This document shows, in pieces, positions 37,762 to 54,096 of a stretch of 64,000 bases of DNA (position 1 is the stretch's first letter; the number at the start of each line of letters is the position of its first letter). Position numbers and translations under genes: made by a program. Origin of the DNA: Methanothrix sp. (GTDB lineage Archaea; Halobacteriota; Methanosarcinia; Methanotrichales; Methanotrichaceae); NCBI GenBank assembly GCA_963682135.1, contig OY821645.1, positions 864,001 through 928,000 on the forward strand, in the 5' to 3' direction. The notes below the pieces were generated by a model. The model made no database searches and was not told the origin of the DNA. It saw nothing but the letters and a program-made list of their open reading frames with translations.

Positions 37762-37926
37762 ATGTCTCAAAAATATCAGTGCACCATTTGCGGATACATC
37801 TACGACCCAGAAAAAGGAGATCCCGACTCAGGAATTGCTCCCGGAACCTCCTTTGCAGATCTGCCGCAAACATGGACCTGTCCGCAGTGCGGCGCAGCGA
37901 AAGATGATTTCCAAGAGATGAAATAG
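37762..37926 (+). CDS. rubredoxin
   Basis: [16 protein letters not shown]...WTCPQCGA (below the ORF-track cutoff). Confidence 0.93.
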
Positions 37927-43778: not shown

Positions 43779-44417
43779 CTAAATGAAGCCGTCGATCAGT
43801 ACCATTGCCTCTCGCAGATCGCCCACTACCTCGCGACCGGAGCGCTCTCCCTTGCGGTCTAAGAAGAGGGCATCCAGACCTGCCTCCAGGGGAGACTCAT
43901 AATCGTAATTGTAATGATCGCCGATATGCAGAACCTCGAAGGGCTTCACGCCCATGTGAGCGCAGACTGTGCCGTAGATCAGAGGCGATTTCTTTACCTC
44001 CCGGAAATCAGAGGTGGCGGAAAAGATCTCTCTAAAGTAGTCCGACAGGCCCTCCAGCTCAAAGTCGATGAACTCGCGAGCAGCGTTGGATGTCACTACC
44101 AGATCGTAGCTTTCACTGAGCTGATCCAGCACCTCCTGCACCTCAGGATAGGTCTCAATCTCGTCCTCGTACATCTGCAATAGCTCTTCCTTGCCCACCT
44201 TCAGCCCAAACTTATCGATCCAGTAGAGCAGGTCGTACCACTCCAAATGGTCGCTTCCTATCTTCATGTACTCGCCGACAACGTATTCCTTGGCAGAGAG
44301 AAAGTCCAGGCCGGTCTTTTCAGCATAAAGCATGGGCATGCCTTCCATCCAAACCTTGTCCACGAACCTGGAGTTAACCAGGGTGCCGTCCATGTCCAGG
44401 GATATGACGCGAATCAT
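43779..44417 (-). CDS. HAD-superfamily hydrolase
   Basis: DMDGTL, TSN, K, HIGD...D. Confidence 0.88.
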   Translation of the reverse strand: MIRVISLDMDGTLVNSRFVDKVWMEGMPMLYAEKTGLDFLSAKEYVVGEYMKIGSDHLEWYDLLYWIDKFGLKVGKEELLQMYEDEIETYPEVQEVLDQLSESYDLVVTSNAAREFIDFELEGLSDYFREIFSATSDFREVKKSPLIYGTVCAHMGVKPFEVLHIGDHYNYDYESPLEAGLDALFLDRKGERSGREVVGDLREAMVLIDGFI

Positions 44418-44565
44418 CTAATTCTCCGATATGAATAGAAATGAATCGCTGTATAGGTAATTATTCTTTTTGGGTCGAACGGGTCAAACGCTGGAGGTCG
44501 AATGCAGGGATTTGCTTTTGATGCAGTCCGAAAGATGCTTGTATCTCCTTCTCGTCTTTAGAGCC

Positions 44566-45171
44566 ATGCGCAATTTCATCGTTGTCGGTCACAAGGCCAC
44601 TACCACTCCCAATTTCTCCCTGGAAGACATCCCCGGCACCTCCGGACGCCTGGACATTCTCTGCCGGGCCGTCACTGCCTCCTTTGTCATCTCGCACGGC
44701 ATTCGAAAGGATGTCTGCGTCTACCTGATCCTGCTGGGCGGGGAGATTCCCAAGACGATTCAGCTTCGGGGCGAGACGCTGCGCCACCTCAACCCGGATG
44801 AGCGCACCACTGCAGCTCTGCTCAAGAAAGCTCTGGCGCTGCCCGCAGCAGCGGAGTGGCACATGTCTACCTCCGGCATCTTTGTGCGCACGGGCAGCCT
44901 CGCAGAGCTGCTGGCCGATCTGAAAGAAACAAAATTGGTCTACCTGCGCGAGGATGGTGCGGATATTCGCGGCCTTGAGGCAAGCGGCCTTTCCGGCGAG
45001 ACGGCCTTCATCCTGGGGGACCACACCGGCATGACTCCCGAAGAGGAGGCTCTGCTCGAGCAGGCCGGGGCAAAGGTCGTCTCCCTGGGGCCGACCAGCC
45101 TACATGCCGACCACTGCATTGTGCTCTTAAACTGGCTTTCCGATACTAACCTTTCTATACCTAGATGTTGA
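44566..45171 (+). CDS. trmY: tRNA (pseudouridine54-N1)-methyltransferase, C-terminus apparently supplied by the island
   Basis: SGRLDILCR, LNPDER, FILGDH.G, SLGP.SLHADHCI SPOUT motifs. Confidence 0.92.
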   Translation: MRNFIVVGHKATTTPNFSLEDIPGTSGRLDILCRAVTASFVISHGIRKDVCVYLILLGGEIPKTIQLRGETLRHLNPDERTTAALLKKALALPAAAEWHMSTSGIFVRTGSLAELLADLKETKLVYLREDGADIRGLEASGLSGETAFILGDHTGMTPEEEALLEQAGAKVVSLGPTSLHADHCIVLLNWLSDTNLSIPRC

Positions 45172-45180
45172 TTTTCATGT

Positions 45181-45675
45181 GTGCCACGCCCGAACGCAAG
45201 GGATCGCCAGTTCATGATGTATTTCCCATCCGAAGCTGATAGAGAGCGATGGAGAAAGAATGCCCGAAAATCAAAGATGCCCTTCACGGACTGGATCTAT
45301 TCCATGGTGGAGTCTAAGCTTGCAGACGAGGACGAAGGGGCCAGAACTGCACAAACAGTATCGACACTTGCCGAAAATAGACAGCTTCGTAGAGAGCTGC
45401 AAAAGAGCGAGGCTAGGATCAACGATCTGGATATGGAGATCTTCAAGCTGAGGGAGCAGAAATTCGCAGAGGATCAGGGGCGGGCACCAATCGATGAAAA
45501 ACTAGTCCAAGTGTTGCAAAAGAGTGGCATCTGGTCGAATGCCGCGATCTTAGAGGAGCTCGGCGTCGACCCTCATGACATTGAGGCAATTGAGTTGTTG
45601 AGCCGACAGCTCCAGCTATTGCAGGACATTAAATTGGTGCGTGAATCGGCTTGGGGTTGGCGATGGTTCGGCTAG
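45181..45675 (+). CDS. integrase-associated protein (RHH-like N-terminus, coiled coil, wHTH-like C-terminus)
   Basis: RQFMMYFPS..RERW...WIYSMVE; heptad segment; overlaps the integrase start. Confidence 0.65.
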   Translation: MPRPNARDRQFMMYFPSEADRERWRKNARKSKMPFTDWIYSMVESKLADEDEGARTAQTVSTLAENRQLRRELQKSEARINDLDMEIFKLREQKFAEDQGRAPIDEKLVQVLQKSGIWSNAAILEELGVDPHDIEAIELLSRQLQLLQDIKLVRESAWGWRWFG

Positions 45676-46112
45676 AAGAATTCCGGGCAGACCTAGAGTT
45701 CCAGGGTCGATCCAAGAGCTATATGGACACCGTCCTCTGGGAAACGCGTCGTTACCTGGCCTGGACGCAGGCGCCAGAAACCCGAGCATCCTTGCTCGCA
45801 TACCTGGCCGACATGCGAAAAAAGGGAATACGCCAAAGCACGATTGAACGGGCATTCTCTAATCTATCTGTGTATTTTGACTACTTGGTCGAGATTGGCG
45901 AGCTCCAGCAAAATCCTATCCAGCCTCTAAAAAAGCGCTACCTTTCAGCCTACAAGGATGAGGTTCAACAGCGCCAACTAATATCTGTAGAGGCTGCGGG
46001 AAAAATGGTTCGAGCTACGACTGATACTAGTATTACAGTTCTAAATTAACATATCAATACTCCGCCGTCCTTGTCAGCAACAATCCCGCCAGCCATTTTA
46101 TCCATTTTGTAC

Positions 46113-47253
46113 GAGGATTCCTATAAACCAGCCCAATTCTTAATATAGAAATGTTTATATACTATTAACACCATTATATGTTATGAATTCTTTTACCACT
46201 TGGGTATTGCGAGGGCTTAGCGAGACGCAAGGTAAATCTCGGTTATCGCAGATATCGGATTTGATCGACTGGTTACCCATTCGCCGGATACTGGATGAGA
46301 TGTATGACAATAAGAGCGAAAAGGGTGGAAGGCCCAACTGCGATGTAATTTTGATGTTCAAGATCCTGATACTCCAACAATGGTACGGCTTGAGCGATTT
46401 GGAAATTGAGCGACAAATGGCTGACCGCATCTCGTTTATGTCATTTCTTGGTTTCCCTGATATGTTCCCCGATTCTAGGACGATATGGCTATTTAGAGAG
46501 CGCATGGCCAATGCTGGAAAAGATGAAGTTGTCTGGGCAGAACTTCAGAGGCAATTGGATGCTATGGGTTTACAGGTCAAACATGGAACGATCCAAGATG
46601 CCACGTTCATTGAAGCAGATCCCGGAAAGTTCAAGAAACCACGTGGAAAAGATGCTAAGACCCGCCGCAGTAGGGATGGGACAATAGCCAAGAAGGGCAA
46701 TGAATTCCATTTTGGCTACAAACTGCATCAAAAAACCGATATTGATTATTGCCTGATTCGTGAAATCGAGACTTCCACGGCTTCGTTGCATGATAGTCAG
46801 GTTGATCTCTCAATTGAGGATGAAGTGGTGTTAAGAGACAGGGGGTATTTTGGGGCAAAGGCCAGGGGAATAGATTTTACAATGAAGCGCAGGACAACCG
46901 ATAAGCCACTGGAGGAACTTGATAAGGAGCGAAATCGATTGATCAGCAAGCTAAGATCCCCAGGTGAGCGCCCCCATGCAGTGATCAAGAGAATTTTTAA
47001 CTCGGGCTGGGTGTTGGTTACAACGATAAAGAGGGTTCATATAAAAATGATGGCTACCGCCTTTGCTTTCAATTTATATCAGCTCTGCACTCTGAAAAAA
47101 GCCGGAATCATTTGAGCCTAGCGGACGCTGTCGAAGAATGATCAGAAAAGGGGGCTGACGAATGAAGTATTTAGCGAAATTGCCTCCTCGTGAAGCGAAT
47201 TATGCATGAATTTCTGAAAACAATCTCTTAAACCGAAGTAAATAGGAATCCTC
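46113..47253 (+). mobile_element. IS5-family element, 1141 bp
   Basis: TIR GAGGATTCCTAT at both ends; GTAC TSD at 46109-46112 and 47254-47257. Confidence 0.92.
46183..47115 (+). CDS. IS5-family transposase
   Basis: GGRP, LQQWYGLSD; DDE QDATF / RDRGY / RSPGER. Confidence 0.93.
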   Translation: MNSFTTWVLRGLSETQGKSRLSQISDLIDWLPIRRILDEMYDNKSEKGGRPNCDVILMFKILILQQWYGLSDLEIERQMADRISFMSFLGFPDMFPDSRTIWLFRERMANAGKDEVVWAELQRQLDAMGLQVKHGTIQDATFIEADPGKFKKPRGKDAKTRRSRDGTIAKKGNEFHFGYKLHQKTDIDYCLIREIETSTASLHDSQVDLSIEDEVVLRDRGYFGAKARGIDFTMKRRTTDKPLEELDKERNRLISKLRSPGERPHAVIKRIFNSGWVLVTTIKRVHIKMMATAFAFNLYQLCTLKKAGII

Positions 47254-48369
47254 GTACTTCCATTTAAATATTGTTGGAGTTTCATTCATGTCGTCTATAT
47301 ATTGACTCATGCGATCTTTCAACTCTTTTTTGGATGATACACGAATCCCTCTCAGCATGCTTCGAGTCATTTTGCTGAATAGGCTCTCGATTATGTTTAG
47401 CCATGAGGCATGTTTTGGTGTAAAGACAAAATGAAAGCGTTGCGGAACTGTTTTGAGATATCTCCTGGTTTCCTTAGATGTGTGTACGCGAACATTATCA
47501 AGAATAATAATTATTTTTATATCTTTCAGATAGGCTGAATCGACGCATTTTAAGAATTCAATGAACTCCCTACTTCTATGCCTGTCGAATATCTTATAAT
47601 GGACAGTCCCGGTTAAGAGATCAATCCCTGCAAGTAGGGATATTGTTCCGTGCCTTATATATTCATAGTCGCGAGAAAGCGTGGCATATTCACCTGACTC
47701 AGGCATTAAATCGGGATATTTATTTTCAATAGCTTGAATTCCTGGCTTCTCATCGTATGAAATGATAACCATGTCGAGCGGCTTATTTTCTTTGGACATC
47801 TGTTGAAGCAATTCTACCTGCTTGTAGGTATGTAGTACAACCACGCTCTTCGGCTCAAATTCCGGATCGATTGGAGCAAGGTATGATGAAATTTTATGAG
47901 GCTTTACGTTGCTAGCGCCAAGTATTTTTGAGACGGTTCCGCGAGATAACTTTGATAATTCTGGAAACCCATTATTTAAACAATGGTTCCGAATATGTTC
48001 TGCTAATAAACTTTGTGTCCATAATTCATATGAATATCCAAGGTCTAGTGGTTTTGAGCAAGCAAGAGACAGAATCCATGTTCTTGCGCCTGAGGATATT
48101 TTTCGTGGTCTGCCACTTCTTGGAAGATCTTCCAATGCTGCATATATTCCATAGGCGAAGGCTTTGTCAATCGTACGCTCAATTTTAGGCCGATTGGTTT
48201 CTAAGTCTCGTGCAATTTGCGAAATTGATTTGCCCTCATAATACTCAAGAAGGATTTTGGAATGATCTACTGCTCTTTCAGGGAGCGTTCTTGACTTGCT
48301 AGCTTTATTAAGGCACTCAAGCTCTTCTTCAGTTAATTGCAGAGCAGGCCGCTTACTCACAAATGGCAT
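47200..48369 (-). pseudogene. IS630 transposase with native C-terminus displaced by IS5
   Basis: DDE YDEKPG / LDN..H / IESLFS; native tail YKMDKMAGGIVADKDGGVLIC* lies at 46046-46111. Confidence 0.88.
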
Positions 48370-49177
48370 GATCTCTGATTGAGTTCCAAGTATTAATATA
48401 TTGCTATGTTATTTTGGAAGCTAAACACTAGAGACAGGGCTGTGCTCACGATCCTGCTGAAGACCGGAATCAGGCGAGGAGAGCTTTTAGCCTTGGACGT
48501 AGCTGATGCGGACCTGCCCGCTCGACAGATCCAACTGAAGCCCGCGGCGAAAAGGACCAACAGAACAGTGTTTTTAGATGAAGAGGCCGCCCGATCCATC
48601 AAACGATGGCTTGCTGCAAGAGAGACGCGCTATCGGAAGCCCAAGGAGCAAGCCTTATTCGTGAGCAATAAAGGCACGAGGCTGGAGAGATCGGCAATTG
48701 ATGCTATGGTACGACGAGCGGGAGAGAGAGCCGGTCTGCATGACTGTGTTTCGGCGAAGCTGGAAGACAAGTTCACGCCCCATTGTTGCAGGCATTGGTT
48801 CACTACCCATCTCCTCCGAGCAGGCATGGAGCGGTCATATGTTCAATGGTTGAGAGGAGATTCAATAAGAGAAGCTGTAGACATCTATTATCATATCAAT
48901 CCAGAGGATGTTCGCCGGCCCTACCTGACGCATATCCCTCAGCTCGGGATTTGAATTTGTGCGCTGTACCTCTGTCGGAGCTTGGCCGGATCCAGCCAGC
49001 GTGACACTACGGATAGGAGGGCTGGCTTTCGGGGAAATTGTTTTTGTCATATGCGCCTTCTGTATCATTAGAATGATGTGACACTAGCCAGAAGCACCTC
49101 GGAACGACCAGGATATGTAGGTGAATATGGGGCTTATACTCCGTTGGCACATTATTATCAAGATAATATACTGTCAA

Positions 49178-49534
49178 TTATCCATTAAAATGATCTTTGC
49201 TTGTCTCCGATGCAAAGTCCTCAAAGTTCTTTTGGTAGGCAATGCCAATAGGGGTCGATCTATACCCGTTCTCAATCTTTTCTATTACAACAGCCCTTTC
49301 TAAAAGTCCGAGGTGAAGTTCGACTGCGGCTTCATTCAATCCAAAGTTTCTCTCAATCTCTTCCTTAGACTTAATCCCTGAGCCAATATATTTCATGATT
49401 TTGCGCCTAATTGGCAACTGTAACACTTCACCTGCAAACCTGTGACCATTCGATGTCTCATACCACTTCTTATCTTCTCCAGGCGCAGATGGCTTAAAAA
49501 GATCCCATCCACTCTGGCCAGAATCGATATTCAT
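49178..49534 (-). CDS. ArsR-like winged-helix protein
   Basis: PIRRKIMKYI...ELHLGLLERAVVIE...Y.STP.G. Confidence 0.7.
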   Translation of the reverse strand: MNIDSGQSGWDLFKPSAPGEDKKWYETSNGHRFAGEVLQLPIRRKIMKYIGSGIKSKEEIERNFGLNEAAVELHLGLLERAVVIEKIENGYRSTPIGIAYQKNFEDFASETSKDHFNG

Positions 49535-49638
49535 AATAGCGGCAATTTCAAACTCATATAAATATGATTTGGTTCAAGATGGCTTTGCATGTAAAGTCGC
49601 TCTTGCGGCAAGACTTGCACCTGTCCGGATCTCACGGC

Positions 49639-49890
49639 CTGATGGACATACAGATGCCGGAGATGGATGGTTTTCAAGCCACCAGAGAAATTCGAAAGCG
49701 ATTGGCATCTCAAGATCGACCGAAGATTATCGCCATCACGGCCTATGCGCTCGAAGGTGATCAAGAAAGGTGTTTGGCAGCCGGAATGGATAATTATATT
49801 AGCAAACCTTTGAGGTTGGATAAATTGCGGTCTGTCCTCGAACCTTATGGAGCCTTAGCAGGGGAGCCGCCCCTTCAGAAGACCTCATAG
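49639..49890 (+). pseudogene. receiver-domain fragment of a hybrid kinase
   Basis: [29 protein letters not shown]; N-terminal half of REC missing. Confidence 0.75.
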
Positions 49891-49977
49891 GCCCTGCAAT
49901 TGGCGGCTCTTAGACACCAACGTATTTATGTAGGGATGAGGATTTATTTAGCCAAAGGAAATGGGGTGTTACTACAA

Positions 49978-50223
49978 TTGTCTAATTCCAAGAGTCCGTT
50001 ACTTGCTGTGATATTGAACCTCATTATTGCCGGTTTGGGTCACGTCTATTTGGGGTACAACAAGCGAGGAATAGTCCTGTTCCTGCTCTCGGCGCTGATA
50101 GCAATCATCAGCTCGGGATTGGGCTGGATTGTGGGAGTCATCTTATGCTCTTACGATGCCTGGCAGCTTGCACAGCATCGGCCGGCTCCCTTCGACTTCC
50201 TGGAGAAATATATCGAAGAATAG
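49978..50223 (+). CDS. small TM2-like membrane protein
   Basis: KSPLLAVILNLIIAGLGHVYLG..KRG motif. Confidence 0.7.
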   Translation: MSNSKSPLLAVILNLIIAGLGHVYLGYNKRGIVLFLLSALIAIISSGLGWIVGVILCSYDAWQLAQHRPAPFDFLEKYIEE

Positions 50224-50284
50224 GTGATCGCCCAGTTATCCAAAGCATTGCAGTTATATGTCTTGAAGCACAAATTGAAATGGA

Positions 50285-51181
50285 ATGAAAAAGGCAGATG
50301 CAAAAGGGCCATCACAGCCACTCGCAGAAGTATTTGGCCACCTGGTTAATGATCAGACTAGCAAAGCTGTCAGGTATCGATCACTTCGGCTTTGTCCGTT
50401 TAATAATAAAGTTCCAAACTGCACCAAGGACAAAGCAAAGAATCCACTTGGTGTATGCAGTATCTATTATTGCAGCAGTCCGGTCATCACCTGCCCAATA
50501 AGATTTCGTGAAGAATGGATAATTACCGACGACGCTGCATCATTTTTCTTTGGAAAGGACGCAACGTGGAGTTCCTTGACAGAAGTCAGGCTGAATGATG
50601 CTAACGGCAAAACTGCTGGAAATATCGATGTTGTCCTTGTTGCTTATGACGATGCAGGAAAAGTTTACGATTTTGGTGCTCTTGAGATACAGGCAGTCTA
50701 TATTTCAGGCAACGTGCGCGAGCCATTTGAGTATTATATACAAGATCCATCAGGCCGCTCATCTATGGACTGGTCAGAAGAGCCCAATTATCCCAGGCCG
50801 GACTTTCTTTCTTCATCCCGCAAACGATTGGTTCCGCAGCTTCTTTTTAAAGGCGGCATTCTCCATAGCTGGGGAAAAAAGACCGCTGTGGCTCTGAGCA
50901 AGGATTTCTTTGACACTTTGCCTCCATTGGAGCACGTCAGCAAAAACGAGGCTGATATAGCCTGGCTGGTTTATGACTTGCAGCTTGTCGATTATTGCGG
51001 ACAAGAAAGGTATGCTCTTAAAAAAGTCGAAGAGGTTTATACACAATTTGAAACATCACTGAAATCAATTACTACACCATTGCCCGGAAAAATTGATGAT
51101 TTTCTAAAACGCCTTCAAAATAAGCTTGATGAGCAGCTTGAGACTGCACCTGTGAATAATACTATCGAAGGGGTTTTCTAA
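50285..51181 (+). CDS. NotI-family restriction endonuclease
   Basis: Cys4 pattern CPF..CTK..GVCS..CPIRF; EV.L..GNIDVVL..ALEIQ nuclease core; PRPD..SS.KRL.PQL..KG. Confidence 0.8.
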   Translation: MKKADAKGPSQPLAEVFGHLVNDQTSKAVRYRSLRLCPFNNKVPNCTKDKAKNPLGVCSIYYCSSPVITCPIRFREEWIITDDAASFFFGKDATWSSLTEVRLNDANGKTAGNIDVVLVAYDDAGKVYDFGALEIQAVYISGNVREPFEYYIQDPSGRSSMDWSEEPNYPRPDFLSSSRKRLVPQLLFKGGILHSWGKKTAVALSKDFFDTLPPLEHVSKNEADIAWLVYDLQLVDYCGQERYALKKVEEVYTQFETSLKSITTPLPGKIDDFLKRLQNKLDEQLETAPVNNTIEGVF

Positions 51182-52089
51182 TGACTGCGACCAGACAAGC
51201 GGTACTCTTCCCGGAATCAGAAAATTTCTTTGCTGCAAAACCGGTAAATGTGGCTTGCGTTCCCCTAAGAAGCCCTTTTCGCTATCCAGGAGGAAAGACC
51301 TGGTTTGTTCCTACATTTAGAGAATGGATGAACCAAAAGCATCCAAAACCAAAGGTGCTCATTGAACCATTTGCCGGCGGAGGGATCATCAGCCTCACGG
51401 CTCTATTCGAGAACCATGTCGATAGTGTGGTCATGGTTGAACTTGATGATGATGTAGCGGCGGTCTGGCAATCCGTGATTGGAGGGGATTTGCAATGGCT
51501 GGCAGATCGCATCATGTCTTTTTATTTGTCTCGCGAATCAGTGATTTCAGAGCTTTCCACATCGGCATTCGAGATCAAAGAACGGGCTTTTAAAACCATA
51601 TTGAAAAACCGAACATTCCACGGCGGTGTGCTGGCTAAGGGTTCAGGTCTAATCAAGTCTGGTGAGAACGGAAAAGGCATACGATCCCGATGGTATCCTA
51701 AAACATTAGCCAAGAGGCTTCTAAATCTGGAAAAGGTCTCTCACAGAATTGATTTTCGCTCAGAAGACGGTTTGAAAGTCATGCGAAGCTTTTCGGAAAG
51801 TGAGGATGCAGTATTCTTCATCGATCCCCCTTACACGGCGGGTGGAAAGAAAGCAGGGAAAAGGCTCTATAAATATTGCGATATCGATCATGAGGGATTA
51901 TTTACCATATGCGAGTCGCTGAAAGGAGATTTCTTGATGACCTATGATAATGCCGATGAGGTAAAAGAGATGGCTAAACGTCACGGATTTTCTATTCGCT
52001 TAATTCCCATGAAGAACACTCATCATGCACAAATGCAGGAGCTTGTCATTGGCAGAGACCTATCCTGGATGACCAATTGCAAGCTCTAA
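51181..52089 (+). CDS. Dam-like (alpha-group) DNA amino-methyltransferase
   Basis: SPFRYPGGK, EPFAGGG (motif I), FIDPPY (motif IV), TYD. Confidence 0.9.
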   Translation: MTATRQAVLFPESENFFAAKPVNVACVPLRSPFRYPGGKTWFVPTFREWMNQKHPKPKVLIEPFAGGGIISLTALFENHVDSVVMVELDDDVAAVWQSVIGGDLQWLADRIMSFYLSRESVISELSTSAFEIKERAFKTILKNRTFHGGVLAKGSGLIKSGENGKGIRSRWYPKTLAKRLLNLEKVSHRIDFRSEDGLKVMRSFSESEDAVFFIDPPYTAGGKKAGKRLYKYCDIDHEGLFTICESLKGDFLMTYDNADEVKEMAKRHGFSIRLIPMKNTHHAQMQELVIGRDLSWMTNCKL

Positions 52090-52127
52090 TAAACCAGAAG
52101 CTCGATTGCAGGATATGAAGAGTCATT

Positions 52128-53498
52128 ATGAGTGAAGACAATTTTGAGAATCCCGAGAATCCCCAAGACAACATCATTGATACAGCCAGGAAGATCATCA
52201 GCCTTGGACCTATCTGCGACAATTGCCTGGGCCGCCAGTTCGCCATGCTCTCCACCGGCCTTACCAATGCCGAACGTGGCCGCTCCCTCAAGACAGTGCT
52301 GGCCATGCAGGCTGCAGCTGACGAGGACGCAGCCCTGCTGGAAGTGCTGGCGCCATCCTTCCGATCGGCGCGCCTCAAGCTGGGCCGCAAGAATGAGGAG
52401 GATGCCCGCTGCACCGTTTGCCTGGGCGAGATGGCCGGCGCAAACCTGGACGCCTGGGCGGACAAAGCGGCTGCGGCCATCGCTGATCGGGAGATTGAGA
52501 CCCTGGTGGTGGGCACCAAGATGTCCGGCCTCCTGGCTGAGAATGAGGAGCTACTGCTGGCCGATGGCGGCAGCACCCACGCCGAGCCCTTCAAGTCGGA
52601 GCTGAATCGCGAGGTGGGAAAGAGGCTTTCCACGTTGACCGCAAAGACAGTTGATCTGAAGAACCCGGATGTGGTGGTTCACCTAAATTTGGAGAAAGGC
52701 GAGGTGGAGCTACAGGTCGCATCCCTCTTCATTCGGGGACGCTACCGAAAACTCGTCCGCGGCATCCCCCAAACACGCTGGCCCTGTCGCGAGTGTCGCG
52801 GTCGCGGCTGCCCGCGCTGCCAGGGCACCGGCAAAATGTATCAGGAGTCAGTGGATGAGCTGATCCGCCCCGCTGTGATGGAAGCGACCGCAGCGGAAGA
52901 CACCGTCTTTCACGGCGCAGGTCGCGAGGACATCGACGCCCGCATGATAGGCACCGGTCGCCCCTTCATAGTGGAGGCGGTGCGCCCTCTCATCAGGACA
53001 ATTGATCTGGCCGCGCTGGAGGCAGAGATCAATCGCCATGCGGCAGGCAAAGTCGAGGTACTGGGCCTCGCCAAGGCGCATTCTGCAATGGTTGAAAAGA
53101 TCAAAGAGGCCACATTTGAGAAGACCTACTCCGCCCTGGTTAGGCTGGGTGCAGAGGTTTCAGAAGAAAAGCTTAAATCTGTCCTGAAAGAATTGCAAGG
53201 GCCGATCGATCAGCGTACGCCAACTCGCGTGTCTCACCGAAGAGCTGATAAGGTCAGGGTGAGGAAAGTTCATAGCGCTGATCTACTGGAGGTTACGGGC
53301 AATTTGGCCCGCATAAATATAAGAGGCGACAGCGGTCTGTATATCAAGGAGTTGATCTCCGGAGACGGTGGCAGAACCCGCCCGAACCTCGCCGAAATCC
53401 TCAAAGTCGACGCGATCGTCGAAGAATTAGATGTAATAGATGTAGGTGGAGAATCAGATGGCACATCATCACGGAATGCGGAAGAAGTCCAGAGGTAA
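52128..53498 (+). CDS. pus10: tRNA pseudouridine(54/55) synthase Pus10
   Basis: CDNCLGR, GRYRKLVRGIPQTRW, GAGREDIDARM, GLYIKELISGD.GRT.P. Confidence 0.95.
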   Translation: MSEDNFENPENPQDNIIDTARKIISLGPICDNCLGRQFAMLSTGLTNAERGRSLKTVLAMQAAADEDAALLEVLAPSFRSARLKLGRKNEEDARCTVCLGEMAGANLDAWADKAAAAIADREIETLVVGTKMSGLLAENEELLLADGGSTHAEPFKSELNREVGKRLSTLTAKTVDLKNPDVVVHLNLEKGEVELQVASLFIRGRYRKLVRGIPQTRWPCRECRGRGCPRCQGTGKMYQESVDELIRPAVMEATAAEDTVFHGAGREDIDARMIGTGRPFIVEAVRPLIRTIDLAALEAEINRHAAGKVEVLGLAKAHSAMVEKIKEATFEKTYSALVRLGAEVSEEKLKSVLKELQGPIDQRTPTRVSHRRADKVRVRKVHSADLLEVTGNLARINIRGDSGLYIKELISGDGGRTRPNLAEILKVDAIVEELDVIDVGGESDGTSSRNAEEVQR

Positions 53499-53748
53499 GC
53501 TGAGCAGGACAGTCAGGGCTAAGGGCAAGTCCTCGGTAGTCAGGGCGATTCAGGAGTTCGAGACGGGCGCAATGGTTCATGTAATCATCGACCCCAGCAT
53601 ACACAAGGGTATGCCTCATCCGAGGTTTCACGGAAAGACGGGCGAGGTTGTAGGAACGAGAGGTAGAGCCTTTGTCCTGAAGGTCACTGATGGCGACGCT
53701 ACCAAGACATTGATCACTTTGCCAGAACATCTGACAGCACAAAAATAG
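53458..53748 (+). CDS. rpl21e: 50S ribosomal protein L21e
   Basis: IDPSIHKGMPHPRFHGKTG..PEHL. Confidence 0.96.
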   Translation: MAHHHGMRKKSRGKLSRTVRAKGKSSVVRAIQEFETGAMVHVIIDPSIHKGMPHPRFHGKTGEVVGTRGRAFVLKVTDGDATKTLITLPEHLTAQK

Positions 53749-54096
53749 ATGATTGTCAAAAGCGTATTGCAGGAGGATATCCTGACCATGGCGGAGGTCA
53801 GGGAGATCCTGGACCAGATCCGGCAAAAGCGTGCCGATGAAGCAGAAGAACTGGGTTACGAACTGCGCCGGGCTATCAGGCATGCCGATCTCTTTAGCAA
53901 GGGCACGGCAGAAGAAAGCCTAGCGATGGTAGCGGAGCTAATGAAGCTGGAAAAGATGAACAAGGTAATTGCCGTAAAGGTCGCCGACATCAGACCCGTC
54001 ACTAAGGACGAGTTGAGGGCGATTTATGCCAAGGAACGGTTCACTTTAAGCGAAGAAGAGCTCGATCGCATTTTAGAGATAGTATTCAGGGGGTAA
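53749..54096 (+). CDS. rpoF: RNA polymerase subunit F (Rpo4)
   Basis: ELGYE..A..H..KVADIRP..DELRAIYAKER; conserved position after rpl21e. Confidence 0.92.
   Translation: MIVKSVLQEDILTMAEVREILDQIRQKRADEAEELGYELRRAIRHADLFSKGTAEESLAMVAELMKLEKMNKVIAVKVADIRPVTKDELRAIYAKERFTLSEEELDRILEIVFRG

Follow-up and report, generated by a model that had tools for sequence, protein, structure and literature searches.

Stacked remnants of probable site-specific integrations at the 3' end of trmY, between trmY and pus10, in a Methanothrix genome

Pus10 makes pseudouridine 54 in tRNA and TrmY methylates that base, and the genes of the two enzymes stand next to each other in a sister family of the Methanothrix lineage. 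In the 64,000-nucleotide (nt) stretch of a Methanothrix sp. genome analysed here (contig OY821645.1, positions 864,001 to 928,000 of the forward strand; "the window", to which all positions refer unless another source is named), they are separated by a broken tyrosine integrase gene with its upstream partner (ORF164, ORF for open reading frame), insertion sequences (IS), a TM2-domain gene and a restriction-modification (R-M) pair. We conclude, with a probability of roughly three in four, that positions 45133-52118 are the stacked leftovers of successive site-specific integrations at trmY codon N189, in at least two layers. This conclusion is carried by the comparison with empty sites in relatives, by two displaced trmY tails, by the paired ORF164-integrase module, by another, independent element seated at codon N189, and by the nesting of the IS elements.

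A first-pass annotation of the window had described this interval as one compact island bounded by two short junction strings. Both strings are present, the left one (GTGCTCTTAAACTGGCTTTCCGAT) at 45121-45144, with TTA AAC TGG at 45127-45135, and the right one (AAGCTCTAATAAACCAGAAGCTCGATTGCAGGATATGA) at 52081-52118, with TAAAC at 52090-52094 and the stop TGA at 52116-52118; the ATG of pus10 (52128) lies nine bases past that stop, as had been noted. The G+C content is 0.39-0.53 within the trmY-pus10 interval, compared with 0.56-0.62 in trmY and pus10, and an Rfam scan of 44400-52300 found no RNA families. The single island, in the sense of one insertion, does not survive the comparison with relatives, in which the inner site is empty and the order is trmY-TM2(-R-M)-pus10.

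The break in trmY and the inner element

Measured with a profile built from 17 ancestral trmY ends, homology of the window's trmY to the ancestral gene runs through the third base of codon N189 (45132) and no further. Past TTA AAC TGG the reading frame continues with CTT TCC GAT ACT AAC CTT TCT ATA CCT AGA TGT TGA, and LSDTNLSIPRC* thus replaces the tail of the relatives. On this comparison of sequences, the claims that mobile DNA lies in the 3' end of trmY and that the incoming DNA supplies a new TrmY C-terminus hold, with codon N189 as the apparent point of entry. The solved relatives AF_1056 and MJ1640 (2QMM and 3AIA) align only to residue 189-192, and the PF04013 match spans TrmY residues 1-193; the swapped segment lies beyond the aligned core of the solved proteins, which fits retained activity, and TrmY may have stayed active with its new tail. 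In indirect agreement with this, tails of the NW type are fixed in whole genera with otherwise conserved TrmY proteins.

The inner element extends from ~45133-45136 to ~49897-49903 and measures 4.8 kb, or 2.4 kb without its IS elements; its ends are placed there because trmY diverges after AAC TGG and because a second trmY-type tail stands before the TM2 gene. This second tail, at 49898-49939, reads AAT TGG CGG CTC TTA GAC ACC AAC GTA TTT ATG TAG GGA TGA and matches the live tail of relatives (W-F/L-L-D-T-N-V-F-M-x-G-stop), here with an internal stop, and the TM2 gene follows it in the window just as it follows the live tail in the relatives. The two tails that flank the element (45133-45171 and 49898-49939) are ~60% alike, with an identical core of at most AAYTGG, and one stretch of locus L004 aligns to both 45134-45172 and 49905-49943. 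When 44000-54000 was compared with the trmY loci of 19 relatives, the block 45173-49638 was found in none of them, and ORF164 with its integrase was likewise absent from the trmY loci of 20 further relatives. TM2 directly follows trmY in 10 of the 19 loci and in more of the further 20; trmY, TM2 and pus10 are contiguous in genomes G074, G049, G059, G051 and G061, and in G060 the order is trmY-TM2-endonuclease-methyltransferase-pus10, with no integrase. Empty sites, as required of an integrative element, are therefore available for the inner layer.

The integrase reading frame is not intact, being split between 46025 and 48432, and this copy is inactive. Its two pieces join end to end (...ATTDT / RDRAVL...) when compared with the intact integrases of loci L073, L074 and L022, with no other defect, and the alignment with intact homologues keeps ...TGIRRGE..., ...HCCRHWF... 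and ...DIYYHI..., which we take to contain the catalytic R...H-x-x-R...Y residues; the N-terminal SAM-like match (PF13495) is weak. Together, the IS630-like pieces that split the gene match four further copies elsewhere in the genome, and the IS5-like element inside them matches two, all at 99.9-100% identity. A 4-nt overlap marks the target duplication of the IS5-like element, and its joint with the IS630-like element is also seen in isolate runs. The near identity of these copies suggests that the integrase was inactivated recently, and the nesting of one near-identical IS in another points to recent transposition bursts.

Little else is left of the inner layer. No homologues of its winged-helix-like ORF, 118 amino acids (aa) long, were found in other loci of the family, in the viral genomes G075 and G076 described below or in L073, and the receiver-domain fragment is 87% identical to a paralogue at genome positions 2724692-2724903. 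Virion and packaging genes (terminase, portal, capsid, tail) were not found in the window element, which is at most a provirus remnant, a stump beside its relatives. High word shares in metagenome runs X1-X3 were traced to IS and receiver-domain paralogues, and not to the element.

Two further observations touch on these parts. In genome G042 (locus L063, G042:C136 5761-8914), the gene for a hybrid kinase of 1007 residues, whose receiver domain is C-terminal, stops immediately ahead of a 3' fragment of trmY, 40 codons long. Next come TM2, the decayed remains of a NotI/methyltransferase pair and pus10, and the full trmY lies on another contig (L062, G042:C87) among ordinary genes; the receiver fragment of the window holds the same relative position as the receiver domain of this kinase. 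Outside the window, in the same genome (C1:1634377-1634400), a trmY-like string ...ANHCMIIII* is the second-best match of the ancestral profile (E 0.43). A degenerate second copy of the integrase (1634712-1635215) is ~300 nt away. The string may be the relic of another element's attachment arm, or a chance match.

The integration module and its viral relatives

A scan of metagenome contigs with ORF164 returned four loci, L071-L074. In the first three, ORF164 (64% identical) stands immediately behind trmY and an unbroken integrase gene (64-65%) comes next, the trmY tail reads NWLLDTNLFKP*, and the left-end string GATACTAACCTTT is common to these loci and the window. The HAD-hydrolase gene found upstream of trmY in the window is also seen in L071 and L072. 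The host of L071 is another species, with a flank 88% identical to G008, and both diverge right after AAT TGG. An independent relative of the window element has thus used the same target, down to the same trmY codon. The fourth locus, L074, is a 53% relative at a different site, in which ATACTAACCTTT of the window's left end recurs.

Relatives of the module also point to what kind of element has been lost. A gene for a large terminase (phrog_7579, E 1.8e-38) lies downstream of the integrase in L073, as does a candidate for the small terminase. The closest integrase, 70-76% identical to the window's two parts, belongs to the IMG/VR provirus G075 (36 kb, beginning inside the integrase gene), which has terminase and head-morphogenesis matches and an ORF of 2184 residues, a tape-measure-like size. 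In a second IMG/VR sequence, G076 (37.8 kb), a direct repeat with 17 of 18 nt alike lies at 44-61 and 37765-37782, on either side of a 37.7-kb stretch, with the ORF164-integrase pair 45 nt inside; it is probably a complete provirus of this family with its attachment (att) sites, at a target other than trmY. No trmY-like strings were found at the right ends of L073, L071, G075 and G076, and the viral contigs that were found lacked the relevant end. Relatives of ORF164 were not found in genome contigs, with either single-protein or alignment queries, nor in viral contigs.

The two genes travel together. Integrase homologues occur in 36 of the 59 genomes of the genus, with up to 8 matches per genome, and at all 29 genus loci examined a homologue of ORF164 lies directly upstream of the integrase on the same strand. 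A tRNA-Leu gene stands just upstream of the module at 3 of the 29 loci, and a fourth, L029, opens on the 3' end of a tRNA; the contigs of the tRNA-Leu-linked members break off before attR would be reached. Of ten ORFs that lie on the same strand and terminate shortly ahead of ORF164 at other family loci, Pfam matched three, one as the 3' end of a polyprenyl synthetase gene, one as a fragment of DUF1646 and one, weakly, as winged-helix; seven had no match. TATA-like boxes are placed at the same distance before ORF164 in other family members. At 8 of the 29 loci (L032, L034, L035, L036, L038, L041, L044 and L046), a conserved block of ~50 nt was noted ~30-90 nt upstream of ORF164, containing GAGGGTGGGATATTC in several cases and then TTTTACAGGTAA; it may represent a target shared by these elements, or an end sequence conserved within a sub-family.

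An AlphaFold model of ORF164 based on 30 sequences has a mean predicted local distance difference test score (pLDDT) of 83.8 and begins with two short helices (residues 4-9 and 18-30), continues in one 60 residues long and ends in a winged helix. A Foldseek search of this model against the PDB gave no hit at E<=0.001 and returned only winged-helix domains (E 0.06-0.4). ORF164, always paired with the integrase, is thus predicted to be a winged-helix DNA-binding protein and probably serves the integrase as an accessory or directionality factor.

The older layer and the ancestral trmY tail

The right-hand junction string belongs to an older state of the locus. The 55-65 nt before pus10 are conserved in all 11 genus relatives examined, with or without R-M genes and without an integrase, and they are kept even in G015, where pus10 is unlinked from trmY. 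Since the string is present in 11 of 11 integrase-free relatives, it is not the attR of the window's integrase, as the first-pass annotation had taken it to be; the integrase module has its own tail at 49898-49939.

The further proposal that the string is the displaced original tail of trmY has fared better, and we consider it likely on the sequence evidence. The block reads GCT CTA ATA AAC CAG AAG CTC GAT TGC AGG ATA TGA, or ALINQKLDCRI*, and has the same length to the stop as AIINNEFDRRI* at the live trmY end of the relative G077; loci that retain the ancestral tail likewise end in the NNELDR type near pus10. Anchored at the stop, the 36 nt before the right-hand stop agree with the G077 tail at 21 of 36 positions (binomial P 8.6e-5), a value reached in none of 20,000 shuffles, while the shared 5-mer TAAAC alone is not beyond chance. 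Taken together, the statistics lend the relic moderate support. The ancestral profile gives the relic 3.8 bits (E 0.031), only in a local search of 1.2 kb. In local alignments of the relic against G077 and genus g19, 64 and 59 of 2000 shuffles, respectively, reach the score, and the alignments against g12, g14 and the window's own trmY are not significant. In genera g17 and g11, the relics have an intermediate form nearer the ancestral ATAAAYAAYGAGCTTGAY. A TATA-like TAATAAA (52088-52094) lies ~35-40 nt before the pus10 ATG, and the ancestral tail has probably been kept because it sits at the expected position of the pus10 promoter.

The comparison was widened to the family, which comprises 16 genera and from 14 other genera of which we took 20 trmY loci. 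Family f3, its sister, has trmY next to pus10, mostly ~50-110 nt apart, and TrmY ends there in ...N-N-E-L-D-R.... Of the 20 loci, 12 have an ancestral tail of the form N-[NHS]-E-[LF]-D-R, all with pus10 <=417 nt from the trmY stop and most <=76 nt; the other 8 have a W-x-x-D-T/N tail, with pus10 260 nt or 0.9-4.1 kb away, or unlinked. In all the new tails, which come from seven genera, the first residue is W, and D-T or D-N is retained two or three positions later.

Genus g10 provides the clearest comparison, with one empty and two occupied sites. In G077, trmY ends ...CAT TGC ATA GCC ATT ATA AAT AAT GAA TTT GAT CGT AGG ATT TGA and pus10 begins seven bases later, whereas in G078 and G079 it ends ...ATC ATA AAC AAC TGG CTA GAT ACT..., followed by 4.1 kb of other genes and, before pus10, by ATC ATA AAT AAT GAG CTT GAT CGT AGG ATT TGA. 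This relic is identical to the live tail of G077 at 30 of 36 positions, and the comparison of the three genomes places a 12-nt repeat, ATCATAAAYAAY, at both junctions. Loci that keep the ancestral tail thus end TrmY in the NNELDR type close to pus10, as had been anticipated for island-free genomes. That annotation had also named relatives free of the island but ending in NW..D as evidence against its reading: integrase-free relatives do end so, but they are not truly island-free, because the older layer is retained in them. No integrase or ORF164 was found near trmY in G117 (g22) or in G078/G081 (g10/g11), and in g22 ordinary chromosomal genes follow trmY.

On a maximum-likelihood tree of the TrmY body, built from 41 rows with the tails removed, the W-type tail needs 6 changes, at least 4 of them forced by well-supported branches; G001, with a mutated W-type tail, was mislabelled, and each true count is therefore smaller by one. 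G078 and G079 together form the sister group of G077 (support 99/93), and g22 stands apart from the other W-type genera. As the tree rests on a single short gene and has many unresolved forks, repeated change of the tail is suggestive only.

The R-M genes form part of this older layer. The endonuclease and methyltransferase ORFs abut at 51181 and are both intact, as expected of a type II pair, and a NotI-like endonuclease is found at the same place without an integrase in G060, G012 and G013. The last codons of the methyltransferase run into the block that is kept even in relatives without R-M genes, and such relatives retain ~35-70 nt resembling a methyltransferase 3' end, for which reason the R-M genes may be old cargo. 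Across the genus the pair is patchy and decaying (L004, L007, L010, L054, L063), being intact in G060, reduced to the endonuclease in G012, with the endonuclease mostly deleted in G016 and broken in G042. The TM2 gene at 49975 begins with TTG in the window (TTGTCTAATTCC...) and with ATG in relatives (ATGTCTAATTCC...), and judging by its start codon it may be read from TTG or be weakly expressed.

Other irregularities were seen at trmY and pus10 in the relatives. In G058 (L060, G058:C5 7365-7526), trmY fragments covering residues 27-49 and 165-189 lie between TM2 and pus10, and in G066 (L065, G066:C13 5476-5910), a 5'-truncated trmY with residues 60-199 precedes TM2-pus10, with the full trmY elsewhere. 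Inverted copies of the first 70 trmY codons are present at both ends of a 30.4-kb contig (G018:C20 2-211 and 30193-30402), either as an assembly artefact or through an inversion with its breakpoint in trmY. The pus10 matches in G015, G021, G005, G003, G022, G009 and G081 are listed with one in-frame TAG within the open frame, which may lie ahead of the true start or in the gene itself.

Table 1. Features of the trmY-pus10 region of the window, in order of position.
Feature	Positions	Strand	Evidence or remark
trmY ORF, SPOUT tRNA m1-pseudouridine-54 methyltransferase family	44566-45171	+	PF04013, E 3.9e-57; stop TGA 45169-45171
trmY body to codon N189	44566-45132	+	PF04013; ancestral-tail profile alignment ends at base 45132
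Proposed crossover zone TTA AAC TGG, end of host-type sequence	45127-45135	+	Empty-site relatives alike to AAC TGG, then differ
Element-supplied trmY tail LSDTNLSIPRC* and TATA-like box before ORF164	45136-45171	+	Strings recur in L071-L074
ORF164, predicted DNA-binding integrase partner	45181-45675	+	Unmatched in Pfam and PHROG
Tyrosine integrase, N-terminal part, cut after ...ATTDT	45651-46025	+	Aligns to residues 1-132 of the intact L073 integrase
IS630-like element, 1261 bp, pieces 46026-46112 and 47254-48431, splits integrase	46026-48431	-	DDE_3 transposase 47200-48369
IS5-like element, 1141 bp, inside IS630-like element	46113-47253	+	DDE_Tnp_1 and DUF772
Tyrosine integrase, C-terminal catalytic part	48432-48954	+	PF00589, E 6e-30, on 48406-48954
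Small winged-helix-like ORF, 118 aa, inner-layer cargo	49178-49534	-	Weak PF25213 match
Receiver-domain gene, 3' fragment	49639-49890	+	PF00072, profile positions 47-110 only
Inner displaced trmY tail, attR-like side of integrase element	49898-49939	+	Aligns with live tail of empty-site relatives
TM2-domain membrane protein gene, native trmY neighbour in the genus, older layer	49975-50223	+	PF05154, below curated cut-off
NotI-like restriction endonuclease	50285-51181	+	PF12183, E 1.3e-60
D12-class N6-adenine DNA methyltransferase	51181-52089	+	PF02086, E 6e-13
Outer relic, probable displaced ancestral trmY 3' end, ...ALINQKLDCRI*	52064-52118	+	Conserved in 11/11 relatives
pus10, tRNA pseudouridine 54/55 synthase	52128-53498	+	Pus10_C, E 2.9e-65, and archaeal THUMP domain

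Explanations of the locus and comparison with known systems

The layered state of the locus could have arisen as follows. Each element would carry a short mimic of the trmY 3' end beside its ORF164-integrase module, and the tyrosine recombinase would exchange strands at or next to AAC(TGG) / AAY(TGG), joining the body of the gene to the element's tail, which also holds the TATA-like box of ORF164, and moving the previous trmY tail to the far end of the element. The hybrid left junction would remain a substrate, so that later arrivals stack up while earlier elements decay. Its relatives being head-tailed proviruses of 36-38 kb or more, the element of the youngest layer would then have been reduced to the new tail, ORF164, the IS-broken integrase, the small winged-helix ORF, the receiver fragment and the displaced previous tail. 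The older, genus-wide layer would comprise TM2 and, in some lineages, the NotI-type R-M pair, and end in the ancestral tail ...ALINQKLDCRI*. A wider reading, which we hold tentatively and at slightly less than even odds, is that the W-x-x-D-T C-terminus, found on TrmY in at least seven genera, is not host sequence and derives from a family of integrating viruses, whose arm has become fixed there; these viruses would have rewritten the end of the enzyme at least three times on the TrmY tree and again here. The trmY-pus10 pair would have been permanently parted, the original codons would survive only as the expected pus10 promoter site, and trmY would be a long-lived docking point, at which newcomers recombine with the hybrid left junction of their predecessor.

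Several observations weigh against successive site-specific integration. The inner attL and attR share only AAYTGG and scattered matches, and the attR alignment needs a 3-nt indel, so that the core is not defined; a second alignment of the two, with GCTCTTA on codons V-L-L, is about as good. Neither an attP nor a free circle nor an excision product was seen, and among the contigs of four public runs over 44600-50300 none bridges the element and none contains an empty-site joint; the only informative joint in those runs, from 46108 to 47254, represents IS630-like copies without the IS5-like insert. The integrase module stands at trmY in only two lineages, the window and the organism of L071-L073. 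Among the 59 genomes of the genus, no integrase is more than 61% identical to that of the window and none of the integrase matches adjoins trmY. For the outer relic, one other offset also scores 21 in an unanchored scan of 10,000 offsets, and a genome-wide nhmmer search with the ancestral profile finds trmY (E 1.4e-5), but not the relic. The older layers of g10 and g11 contain genes for secreted proteins but none for mobility, which is why we only infer their origin, viral or otherwise, from an element. Lastly, trmY has been partly duplicated in G042, G058 and G066, over lengths that differ widely, which suggests that homologous or illegitimate recombination also acts at the locus.

This last point leads to the view that the older layer involved no site-specific integration at all, the trmY-pus10 region being instead a hotspot of rearrangement through partial duplications, IS and illegitimate recombination, in which the ORF164-integrase pair landed once by chance and was inherited. 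The partial trmY copies of 40, ~140 and 23+25 codons in G042, G066 and G058 fit this view, as do the unlinked trmY and pus10 of G022, G117 and others, the older layers without an integrase and the weak statistical support for the outer relic in the genus of the window. It is difficult to reconcile with the presence at one codon, in two species, of modules that have diverged to 64% identity and have a left-end string in common, with the clean 12-nt repeat and otherwise intact flanks of the g10 trio, with tails in seven genera that start with W and have D-T or D-N two or three residues on, and with the short att repeat, typical of tyrosine recombinases, in the family member G076; we regard it as unlikely. 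We give still less credence to the original proposal of a single compact, TAAAC-bounded island at 45115-52127, with the R-M and TM2 genes as cargo of the integrase and attR before pus10. It correctly takes in both junction strings, the loss of trmY homology within TAAAC, at its AAC, and the resemblance of the right-hand string to the ancestral tail, and the methyltransferase-like 3' end of ~35-70 nt in R-M-less relatives would agree with the R-M genes as old cargo. The right-hand string, TM2 and sometimes the R-M genes are nevertheless present without the integrase block, in 11 of 11 relatives and at other loci, and the second displaced tail at 49898-49939 stands directly before TM2, as in the empty-site relatives.

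An even less probable account, to which we assign hardly any weight, treats the block before pus10 as promoter and 5' leader of pus10 only, its likeness to a TrmY tail as coincidence, and the NW tail as the product of ordinary divergence upon insertion of TM2 after the stop. The block is indeed kept wherever pus10 is, even where it is unlinked from trmY (G015), it has the TATA-like TAATAAA ~35-40 nt before the ATG, and the genome-wide profile search misses it. Against it stand the anchored identity of 21/36 with a G077-like distance to the stop, the g17 and g11 relics closer to the ancestral sequence, and the 30/36 identity of the g10 relic to the live tail of a congener. Where the two genes adjoin, moreover, the trmY 3' end occupies the position of the block directly before pus10, so that its reading as a promoter and its reading as a relic are compatible.

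If the locus does record successive integrations, it is a clean, datable example of integrating viruses remodelling a housekeeping gene and not just adjoining one: the C-terminus of an enzyme would have been replaced more than once, the functionally coupled Pus10/TrmY gene pair separated, and the old trmY end seems to persist as a promoter. The long-term, repeated rewriting of one enzyme's end is to us its most interesting aspect. ORF164 and the integrase form a two-gene integration module that is abundant in this methanogen-like lineage and could be tried as a site-specific integration tool for genetically hard organisms. For annotation, the locus is a warning that TrmY C-termini are chimeric in these genomes, and that short pseudo-tails mark old integrations.

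Integrases of the lambda type that use tRNA genes are the common pattern in archaea and bacteria. As in those cases, the element carries the 3' part of its target and the gene stays whole; the difference is that the trmY element hits a protein gene, whose restored end differs in amino-acid sequence. In staphylococci, SCCmec and its kin dock at the 3' end of rlmH (orfX), which also encodes a SPOUT-class RNA methyltransferase. There, too, docking in the last codons leaves the gene readable, and arrays and composite islands build up at the site; with large serine recombinases (CcrAB/CcrC), a bacterial host and other cargo, SCCmec is an analogy only. The haloarchaeal SNJ2, which integrates into a tRNA gene, offers a parallel for the module itself, as its classical, non-suicidal tyrosine integrase is encoded with a coiled-coil and a winged-helix protein. 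In a review of archaeal tyrosine recombinases, the integrase is reported to be co-transcribed with Orf2 (coiled coil) and Orf3 (MarR-like), which raise the efficiency of integration (PMC8371274). In ORF164, whose gene overlaps the start of that of the integrase, a long helix and a winged helix occur together; it is one fused upstream protein where SNJ2 has two, and by this analogy of architecture it may play a role like that of Orf2 and Orf3.

The trmY site was not found in a full-text literature search for TrmY with integrase, which returned unrelated papers only, and in a search for Methanosaeta, provirus and integrase it was not described in the accessible part of PMC4158269. A protein-coding target as such is not a novelty for archaea: integrated elements and proviruses in 3'-distal parts of protein-coding genes have been described, among them thaumarchaeal integrated mobile genetic elements such as NitEve-E2 (PMC6563490) and the cases of BJ1 and Msmi-Pro1 in a review of archaeal tyrosine recombinases (PMC8371274). 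As far as these two sources are visible, the likeness is close, comprising insertion by a tyrosine recombinase in the last codons with a replacement end and stop supplied by the element, short att sites, arrays formed by re-use of the site, and IS insertions, while trmY is not among the targets that they list (PMC6563490, PMC8371274). The gene adds a protein-coding target to the archaeal attachment sites, in which integration into such 3' ends was already known. Compared with those elements, the trmY site stands out in being used across several genera of one family, in that the swapped tail is now the fixed form of the host protein, and in the splitting of the operon-like trmY-pus10 pair.

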